Shown: piece after piece, positions 2,273 to 2,879 of the stretch
How the letters are laid out: each line of letters opens with the position of its first letter
Numbering within the stretch: position 1 is the stretch's first letter
Assembly: GCF_001652585.1 (NCBI RefSeq)
Contig: NZ_LWLG01000027.1
Span: 1-6,480 of the forward strand
DNA length: 6,480 nucleotides
Reading direction: 5' to 3'
DNA from: Thermosulfurimonas dismutans
GTDB lineage: Bacteria; Desulfobacterota; Thermodesulfobacteria; Thermodesulfobacteriales; Thermodesulfobacteriaceae
Notes under the pieces: generated by a model
Told to the model about the DNA's origin: nothing
The model's database searches: none
The model's input: the letters and a program-made list of their open reading frames with translations, nothing else
Position numbers and translations under genes: made by a program

Positions 2273-2879
2273 GGGCTTTTACCTGGTCGGAGGGATCGCT
2301 CTGGCTTTTCGCTATCAACATCGGATTTCTAAGAATCTGGCCTTTTTTTCTTTGCCGGAATTTGCGGATAGATATTTCCCGCATGATGAGTTATGGAGTA
2401 AACTTTCCTCTCTCGGAGAAATTTTAGACTATCGTAAAGGAACGGTTACTGGCATGGTGAACGGGGTTAAGGTGTCTTACTTCTCTTACCGTTACCCTCT
2501 ACTACAACCGCTTCTGACCCTAGAGGAATTGCCCGGTGTCAAAATGGCTTCAGATGAGGATATAGCGGTGGCTAAGTTCATTGCGGTAGCGCAAAGAGGA
2601 GAAAAGAAGGATTTTTATAATCTGTGGTTTCTTATGCGGAAGAGGGGCTGGGATCTGAAATACCTCTTTTGTTTATGCACCCGAAAGTATAATTTAAAAG
2701 AAGAAAATATCGCTTTTTTGCTCAAAAGTTTTACCTTTTTTGAGGACGCCGAGGGTCAGGAAATTGAACTTCCCGAAGGCGGGGTCCTGGATAAAGAGAC
2801 GTGGGAAGACATAAAAGAGTTCTTCCGGAAAGAGGTTAAAAGGTTGACCTTAGAAGACCATCCGGAGGTGTGCGGATGA
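2208..2879 (+). CDS. Nucleotidyltransferase AbiEii/AbiGii (DUF1814)-family protein with substituted catalytic motif
   Basis: The ORF is 223 aa. FYLVGGIALAFRYQHRISKNLAFFS aligns with the family pattern FYLAGGTALAL..gHR.S.DLDFF. Further family-like blocks are GVKVSYFSYRYPLLQP, MASDEDIAVAKFIAVAQRGEKKDFYNLWFL, LLKSFTFFEDAE and WEDIKEFFRKEV. The TGA stop at 2877-2879 overlaps the alaS ATG. Confidence 0.8.
   Translation: MKNWLKLQLETLEILSHSGLTEGFYLVGGIALAFRYQHRISKNLAFFSLPEFADRYFPHDELWSKLSSLGEILDYRKGTVTGMVNGVKVSYFSYRYPLLQPLLTLEELPGVKMASDEDIAVAKFIAVAQRGEKKDFYNLWFLMRKRGWDLKYLFCLCTRKYNLKEENIAFLLKSFTFFEDAEGQEIELPEGGVLDKETWEDIKEFFRKEVKRLTLEDHPEVCG

Follow-up and report, generated by a model that had tools for sequence, protein, structure and literature searches.

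Is a protein that still belongs to a family of nucleotidyltransferase toxins, and lacks the signature aspartates of that family, a maintained pseudo-enzyme or simply a disarmed toxin? The question is raised by an open reading frame (ORF) at positions 2208-2879 of a 6,480-bp contig of Thermosulfurimonas dismutans S95 (the whole contig, which comes from one draft genome, was analysed and is called the window below). A first-pass annotation of the letters had described the product as an AbiEii/DUF1814-type nucleotidyltransferase (NTase) with both signature aspartates replaced, and had taken it for a maintained pseudo-enzyme. The family assignment and the replacements are correct, and the observation was, if anything, understated: the site is more damaged than first reported. 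As to what the protein is, we lean, with some reserve, towards a toxin that has been disarmed within an otherwise intact DUF6922-AbiEii module and that has taken on no new function.

2208-2879, forward strand: short-form AbiEii/DUF1814 (MenT-like) NTase homologue with a degenerate active site, 223 amino acids (ORF listing, PF08843, PADLOC, AlphaFold2/Foldseek, N-terminal alignment)

The family assignment is carried both by sequence profiles and by the predicted fold. The ORF clears the gathering threshold of PF08843 (AbiEii/DUF1814), set at 22.5 bits, with a score of 37.8 bits (E=2.6e-9), in an alignment that places residues 12-75 on profile positions 3-65 and spans the GG...NLA motif, and PADLOC AbiEii models match it as well (eight are listed at E<=1, the best with E=6e-7). 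An AlphaFold2 model built on a 123-sequence alignment reached a mean predicted local distance difference test score (pLDDT) of 94.8 and a predicted template modelling score of 0.91, and this predicted structure has the DUF1814 NTase fold with its C-terminal helical lobe. Its best Foldseek matches in the PDB, all with probability 1.0, are JHP933 (4o8s, 4ok0), MenT1 (8an4, 8an5, 8rr5) and MenT4 (6y56); when the PDB was searched by sequence alone, whether the query was the protein or the 123-sequence profile, only chance matches came back. Among proteins at large, an initial homologue search returned 13 homologues at 37-50% identity, and H-R-x-S-x-D-[LF]-D is present in all of these that keep the N-terminus. 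A profile search of a word-indexed database returned 3,809 proteins and, at E<=1e-3, an exhaustive search returned 9,254 representative clusters. Identity to any relative stayed at or below 50% in the protein database, the profile search, GTDB genomes or JGI metagenomes (the last of which gave a single partial match, at 31% identity); the viral contigs searched held no relatives, and a phage origin is therefore not indicated.

The residues in question lie in three segments of the gene.

2289-2297, forward strand: motif I, G28-G29-I30, with G28 encoded by GGA (2289-2291), G29 by GGG (2292-2294) and I30 by ATC (2295-2297) (direct reading, column counts)
2319-2342, forward strand: nucleotide/metal-binding loop H38-R39-I40-S41-K42-N43-L44-A45, with H38-R39-I40-S41-K42 at 2319-2333 (S41 at 2328-2330, K42 as AAG at 2331-2333), N43 as AAT (2334-2336), L44 as CTG and A45 as GCC (2340-2342) (sequence, alignment, MenT1 spacing)
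2574-2621, forward strand: C-terminal DUF1814 motifs, with K123 as AAG (2574-2576), D135 as GAT (2610-2612) and N138 as AAT (2619-2621) (column counts, codons)

Column counts were taken over 346 distinct family members aligned to the family hidden Markov model (HMM). Column 43 holds Asp in 341 of them and Asn in none, and column 45 holds Asp in 338 and Ala in none; the T. dismutans protein has N43 and A45, so that direct reading and family columns agree on the GG-x13-N-L-A pattern with both signature aspartates replaced. The closest homologues use GAT or GAC at both codons, each of which is, as the first-pass annotation had observed, one substitution away from the AAT and GCC found here. The residue after GG, also noted earlier, is indeed Ile where 340 of the 346 have Thr and none has Ile (ATC, against ACA or ACT in the closest homologues). 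Two further replacements had been overlooked. The first is in the loop itself, which reads H-R-x-S-E-D-L-D in the clade and has retained H38, R39 and S41 and changed by E42K, D43N and D45A. The second is in the C-terminal motif K-K-D-F-x-D, of which K133 and K134 are kept and the second Asp (345/346 in column 138) has become N138. Around these sites, near-invariant residues remain in place: Ser41 (346/346), K123 (346/346), R130 (344/346) and D135 (344/346).

The combination is without parallel in the family. Both DxD aspartates are replaced in none of the 346 relatives, and over 16 core positions the T. dismutans protein has 4 changes, where no relative has more than 2. In terms of charge, the clade loop S-[ED]-D-L-D carries a net -3 and the T. 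dismutans loop S-K-N-L-A a net +1, which is the sole positive value among 349 sequences. At the nucleotide level, of the five codons changed in the active site, four show G:C to A:T transitions (ACx to ATC, GAG to AAG and GAT to AAT twice) and D45A is a transversion; in a thermophile, this small set of changes might reflect deamination-type mutation.

What these replacements mean for catalysis can be judged by way of the MenT toxins. More specifically, the spacing R37-x-T39-x-D41-x-D43 of MenT1 is identical to R39-x-S41-x-D43-x-D45 of the family found here, and K137-x11-D149-x2-D152 to K123-x11-D135-x2-D138; the equivalence of residues is based on this identical spacing and on the fold match, not on superposition. 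In the model, G28-G29 lie at the turn between the strand 24-26 and the helix 28-36, N43 directly precedes the strand 44-48 and A45 lies inside that strand, a placement which, as predicted, is the canonical geometry of pol-beta NTases. Taken motif by motif, motif I has its hG[GS] pattern (V27-G28-G29), though the near-invariant Thr that follows is Ile, and motif III is preserved in the conserved Lys K123 (MenT1 K137, MenT3 K189) and the following Arg R130, as is the phospho-acceptor Ser/Thr two residues before DxD (S41, corresponding to MenT1 T39 and MenT3 S78). Motif II, D-h-[DE]-h, is absent (N43-L44-A45), and of motif IV, D-x-x-D, only D135 is present, D138 having become Asn.

In MenT1, Mg2+ is coordinated by D41xD43, the alpha-phosphate is held by R37 and K137 and the ribose is contacted by D149; D41A, K137A and D152A abolish NTase activity, and D41A also loses the antitoxin-induced auto-phosphorylation of T39 (PMC11375011). 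Likewise, the toxicity of MenT3 is abolished by D80A, K189A and D211A (PMC7450476). The T. dismutans protein is without three catalytic aspartates, two of which have MenT equivalents that are individually essential (D41/D80 and D152/D211). Because MenT1 and MenT3 are each inactivated by one substitution at the counterpart of either D43 or D138, we infer by analogy with these mutants that both nucleotidyl transfer and auto-phosphorylation have very probably been lost. As the protein lacks motif II and half of motif IV, it should not carry the annotation of an active toxin. Relocated catalytic carboxylates were also looked for and not found, as the segment with GG and DxD (residues 23-59) contains no acidic residue specific to the T. 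dismutans protein (such residues are found at 60, 61 and from 107 onwards); nor does any profile alignment place the aspartates elsewhere, an outcome that the first-pass annotation had named as one that would overturn it.

Milder versions of the same damage occur elsewhere in the family. About 3.5% of its members have one DxD substitution (D43A or D43E; D45N, D45G or D45Y), and each recurrent single substitution is one nucleotide from GAY.

Members with a single DxD substitution: L013, L032, L048; P0034, P0115, P0144, P0084, P0092, P0167, P0240, P0263

In the three genomic loci among them (L013, L032, L048) the ORFs and their partners are otherwise intact. One Aquificaceae metagenome-assembled genome carries two copies, of which L015 is intact and L032 has D45G. 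Point-inactivated alleles would thus seem to be a recurrent background state of the family, as they are in decaying chromosomal toxin-antitoxin (TA) systems, and point mutations that cost a toxin its activity have been described as one stage of such decay (PMC7167474).

Whether the rest of the gene is decaying or maintained is a separate matter. From an intact ORF and well-preserved family blocks, the first-pass annotation had concluded that the protein is a maintained pseudo-enzyme, which does not follow, since a recently disarmed toxin would look alike. Over 41 columns with a conservation of 85% or more, the T. dismutans protein deviates at 8, against a mean of 1.59 (standard deviation 1.51) for other members; four of the 8 are in the active site, and the others (G37Q, F91Y, M122A, Y177F) are conservative or shared with the clade. 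On an HMM from which this protein and its clade were excluded, it scores 208.1 bits, and reverting I30T, N43D, A45D and N138D raises the score by 17 bits to 225.1, inside the range of full-length intact clade-mates (196-230 bits). Four sites account for the whole score deficit, and therefore there is no generalised decay. The claim of preserved blocks and an intact frame is supported, the protein scoring like intact relatives everywhere but at these four sites.

The rate of evolution points the same way. Tajima relative-rate tests with four sister sequences and five outgroups are balanced and show no acceleration, and the nonsynonymous divergence (dN) between the T. dismutans gene and its nearest gene (L004) is 0.45, against 0.454 between two equally distant intact genes (L004 and L001). 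Synonymous sites are saturated in Nei-Gojobori comparisons with the closest genes (proportion of synonymous differences 0.76-0.87), and an intact close pair (L004/L007) has a ratio of nonsynonymous to synonymous divergence of about 0.17. Long-term neutrality of the whole gene is excluded. Two alternatives are left, a young inactivation or continued selection on everything except catalysis, and these tests do not separate them. Residues whose known role is only in catalysis or nucleotide binding (H38, R39, S41, D118, K123, R130 and D135) are all present, without drift, and their retention is no harder to reconcile with a young inactivation than with a maintained new function.

Several points nevertheless weigh against a plainly disarmed toxin. 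The four or five changes all fall in the active site, and some 35 other conserved positions are without a non-conservative lineage-specific change; such confinement is not predicted by neutral drift of the whole gene, and positive selection for detoxification or continued constraint elsewhere is therefore required, the latter being what a maintained pseudo-enzyme would imply. A Fisher test on site classes gives p=0.002 with a post-hoc class, 0.04 with carboxylates only and 0.12 with an a-priori mutagenesis set. Moreover, if one DxD substitution kills this protein as it does MenT toxins, the additional changes would need a special explanation, for which steps of partial loss, such as a first change from D to N, are a possibility. 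E42K, finally, looks like a compensatory change that would stabilise a metal-free site.

The NTase gene does not stand alone, and the setting in which it lies is part of the explanation.

2012-2272, forward strand: partner gene TDIS_2110, 86 amino acids, divergent DUF6922-type, putative cognate antitoxin, intact (alternative starts at 1976 and 2003)
2208-2272, forward strand: dual-coding overlap of 65 nt between the 3' end of the partner and the 5' end of the NTase (homologous loci, HMM estimate, start context)
4001-4065 in L001, 4001-4065 in L003 and 1301-1365 in L004: the same overlap in relatives
1976-2879, forward strand: compositional island with the two-gene module (GC content, and GC content at third codon positions, GC3)
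2864-2879, forward strand: alaS junction, with a GGAGG Shine-Dalgarno sequence at 2864-2868 inside the 3' end of the NTase and an ATGA overlap at 2876-2879

Of 87 loci (L001-L086 and the window), 86 have the partner directly upstream of the NTase according to an iterated partner HMM, the remaining locus being without upstream sequence. The copy in the window reaches 72.6 bits and has retained the conserved D, R, Y and F. More typical partners in the family match PF21956 (DUF6922), with E-values down to 1.9e-19; the partner in the window is not matched by PF21956 directly, has no AbiEi match in Pfam and no match in PADLOC or NCBIfam, returned only itself in a word-indexed homologue search and gave a poor single-sequence AlphaFold2 model (pLDDT 59). 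In Thermodesulfatator, Desulfothermus and metagenomic loci, a homologous ORF of about 90 amino acids likewise runs 65 nt into the NTase gene. The same estimate of the overlap recurs in 24 loci; family overlaps are typically 40-74 nt and cluster at about 40, 43, 52, 56, 71 and 74 nt (HMM estimate). The NTase ATG falls within the conserved D-E-E codons of the partner (G ATG AAG AA), and does so in each of the 13 clade members examined. The window therefore holds, with a DUF6922-type gene overlapping the NTase start, a module of DUF6922 and short AbiEii. Modules of this kind, with a DUF6922-type gene and a short AbiEii of about 210 amino acids, are very widespread (Thermodesulfobacteriota, Aquificota, Bacillota, Bacteroidota, Patescibacteria and others), and the full-text literature searched contains no mention of DUF6922. 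By analogy, the invariant Ser41 at the auto-phosphorylation site of MenT1 (T39), MenT3 (S78) and AbiEii predicts that DUF6922 partners would act as type VII antitoxins.

The composition of the module differs from that of its surroundings: in a sliding window, GC content runs from 0.42 to 0.49 across the module and from 0.53 to 0.62 across the flanking genes, and GC3 is 0.478 in the NTase and 0.494 in the partner, against 0.718 in alaS and 0.663 in a DUF4143 ATPase. The ORF downstream of the NTase encodes the alanyl-tRNA synthetase AlaRS (PF01411, E=4e-223), and its ATG (2876-2878) overlaps the NTase stop codon TGA (2877-2879). The essential alaS is probably co-transcribed with this relic of a tRNA-targeting toxin family, and translational coupling is possible. 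A link to alaS as a feature of the family was considered and rejected, as a homologue of AlaRS occurs within 3 kb in 0 of 86 related loci.

A disarmed toxin would account for these observations as follows. The two-gene module of DUF6922-type partner and short MenT-like NTase would have been acquired horizontally, with the NTase as its toxin side. In active relatives, the R-x-S-x-D-x-D loop and K...D-x-x-D bind Mg2+-NTP and move nucleotides onto the 3' ends of tRNA, and when controlled by the antitoxin they also auto-phosphorylate the Ser/Thr two residues before DxD. In T. dismutans, T30I, E42K, D43N, D45A and D138N would dismantle this site and leave no metal coordination, no transfer and no auto-phosphorylation. 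The most likely history would then be the 'toxin dead, antitoxin intact' stage of chromosomal TA decay, in which attenuating mutations may have been selected stepwise once the module had landed directly upstream of essential alaS; the order of the substitutions, this selective reason and the absence of a new function are what we infer from the pattern as a whole. That the ORF is still open may have two reasons, namely that the inactivation may be young relative to the divergence of the family, and that both ends of the gene may be constrained, by the 65-nt dual coding with the partner and by the Shine-Dalgarno sequence and ATGA of alaS. Young inactivation is favoured over maintenance because catalysis-only residues persist and alleles with a single DxD substitution recur.

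The first-pass suggestion of a maintained pseudo-enzyme is the alternative that survives best, and we hold it to be a possible, if clearly less probable, explanation. It would have the fold, the partner-binding surface and perhaps a substrate-binding surface under purifying selection and catalysis discarded, and such a protein might form a regulatory complex with the DUF6922 partner, serve as a decoy for tRNA or nucleotides, or provide immunity or anti-addiction against incoming homologous toxins, with K42 filling the former metal site. The confinement of substitutions at conserved positions to the active site, a remainder that fits the profile like intact relatives and the unaccelerated rates in both the Tajima tests and dN all agree with it, as do the inverted charge of the loop with E42K beside the lost aspartates, the intact partner and dual-coding overlap, and a frame open over 223 codons. 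Set against this, the state is seen in a single lineage with no orthologue in the collections searched, and the rest of the family has single substitutions scattered over it and no clade in which degeneracy is fixed. The seven catalysis-only residues that are kept suggest that little time has passed since inactivation, and with a-priori classes the heterogeneity among site classes is only moderately significant. A more elaborate form, which we think rather doubtful, is a maintained pseudo-nucleotidyltransferase whose metal site has been replaced by Lys (S-E-D-L-D to S-K-N-L-A), which would still fold, attach to the DUF6922 partner and/or the 3' ends of tRNA and leave these unmodified, and act as a regulator, decoy or immunity factor that is co-expressed with alaS and translationally coupled to it.

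Far less probable is the other option raised at first, a non-canonical catalytic arrangement, in which N43 together with D118/D135, or K42 as a surrogate cation, would sustain a nucleotidyl or phosphoryl transfer that is altered or independent of metal. Some so-called pseudokinases were later found to be active by atypical mechanisms, and here S41, R39, K123, R130, D118 and D135 are retained and a Lys has been introduced beside the former metal ligands. Nevertheless, both DxD ligands and the equivalent of D152 are gone from a site that single substitutions inactivate in MenT1 and MenT3, Ala is unable to ligate metal, and the arrangement is used by 0 of 346 relatives. As residues 23-59 also offer no new acidic residue, the proposal lacks positive support.

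It is similarly improbable that the GG...NLA segment is an untranslated remnant and that the true product is the shorter protein of the deposited annotation. The deposited model, TDIS_2111, has 175 amino acids and a TTG start at 2352 (2352-2879), and is therefore without the N-terminal 48 residues (2208-2351), which bear the GG and DxD motifs. Besides this call, which begins at L49, the Shine-Dalgarno sequence ahead of ATG 2208 is weak. Against truncation, residues 1-48 are closer to the nearest homologue in the alignment than the remainder of the protein is, their frame is free of stops, and homologues with the same overlap with the upstream gene are annotated at full length. Because homologues align from Met1 onward and the embedded ATG 2208 with its context is kept in all 13 clade members examined, the 223-residue ORF is, on sequence grounds, the better model; the short call was likely caused by a limit of the gene caller, the true start overlapping the upstream gene by 65 nt.

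Although the locus is known from one draft genome without a second isolate and on a contig of 6.48 kb, a sequencing or assembly error, or a mutation in the laboratory culture of S95, is scarcely credible, as five independent substitutions exactly on active-site codons form no error pattern, the 454 GS FLX reads (143 Mb for a RAST-annotated assembly of 2.12 Mb, or roughly 67x) err by homopolymer indels and not by substitutions, and the frame is intact through the run of seven T right after A45.

The remainder of the window contains genes and sites of less direct relevance.

694-1911, reverse strand: AAA_14 and DUF4143 ATPase with an internal winged helix-turn-helix, divergent from the module (PADLOC candidate defence system PDC-S01, E=3e-105)
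1976-2004, forward strand: promoter-like site TTGGCC-17-TAAAAT upstream of the partner (weak consensus match)
5501-5944, reverse strand: HU/IHF-like DNA-binding protein (PF00216, E=5e-22), with an apparent N-terminal extension of about 50 residues on the assumption of a GTG start
5841-6422, reverse strand: 193-residue protein, part of which matches a NERD nuclease-related domain (E=8e-5) and whose C-terminus has Cys-rich, zinc-ribbon-like motifs

A conserved link between the module and the DUF4143 ATPase was rejected, as a homologue lies nearby in only 4 of 86 loci. The scan for promoters and terminators did no better than shuffled sequence (1 promoter site against 1.1 expected), and the promoter-like site is not evidence by itself. 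The 6,480-nt window contains no tRNA genes and no Rfam elements. Positions 1-750 have low GC content (0.40-0.46) and only small ORFs (65-84 amino acids) with no Pfam match, and the other end of the contig (5701-6480) is strongly AT-rich (GC content about 0.30) and resembles another foreign island beside alaS.

If the NTase is simply disarmed, the locus shows cleanly, in a natural setting, how several missense changes in an active site can neutralise a chromosomal TA or defence module, with the antitoxin-side gene, the frame and the remaining protein intact. Dead toxin alleles are already known, and it is the degree of remodelling of the active site that is, judging from the aligned sequences, unique among some 350 relatives. 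If the protein is instead maintained, it would be, to our knowledge, the first pseudo-enzyme from the MenT/AbiEii tRNA-nucleotidyltransferase toxins. For annotation, the caveat that the label 'AbiEii toxin' is no guarantee of activity is useful, though not surprising. By-products of the analysis may outweigh the finding on the NTase itself, specifically an abundant and unstudied module of DUF6922 and short AbiEii, its conserved dual-coding overlap and its invariant Ser.

Among known systems, MenT1/MenA1 of Mycobacterium tuberculosis (Rv0078A/Rv0078B), with a tRNA nucleotidyltransferase toxin, is similar in combining a small single-domain DUF1814 NTase with a small upstream partner; the Foldseek probability is 1.0 (8an4/8an5), R-x-[ST]-x-D-x-D and K-x11-D-x2-D are the same, and T39 corresponds to S41. 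The differences are that N43, A45 and N138 stand in T. dismutans for D41, D43 and D152, so that the toxic and auto-phosphorylation chemistry is expected to be absent, that the partner is DUF6922-type and not MazE-like as MenA1 is, that identity is about 14-16%, and that partner and NTase overlap by 65 nt. AbiEii/AbiEi of Streptococcus agalactiae and Lactococcus, the abortive-infection TA system with the founding member of PF08843, shares that Pfam family, the PADLOC AbiEii matches and the pol-beta NTase superfamily with its motifs I-IV. It differs in its upstream AbiEi (COG5340, winged helix-turn-helix), in whose place the window has a DUF6922-type partner, and in length, the T. dismutans protein being much shorter (223 amino acids, with a family consensus of about 210), besides its missing motif II and half-lost motif IV. 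JHP933 of Helicobacter pylori, a putative DUF1814 nucleotidyltransferase (4o8s/4ok0), is the best structural match (E=1.8e-5, template modelling score 0.54 over about 240 columns) and of similar size, at 17% identity and with function and partner unrelated as far as compared. As a stage of decay, the closest counterpart comes from another toxin family: ccdO157 of E. coli is, in the summary given of it, a decaying chromosomal TA system with a point-inactivated toxin (Mine et al. 2009, as cited in PMC7167474). As far as that summary goes, the two share a chromosomal and horizontally acquired module with its toxin disabled by missense mutation and its antitoxin gene intact, and they differ in that the T. 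dismutans toxin, seen here in a single genome, has four to five active-site changes and not one.

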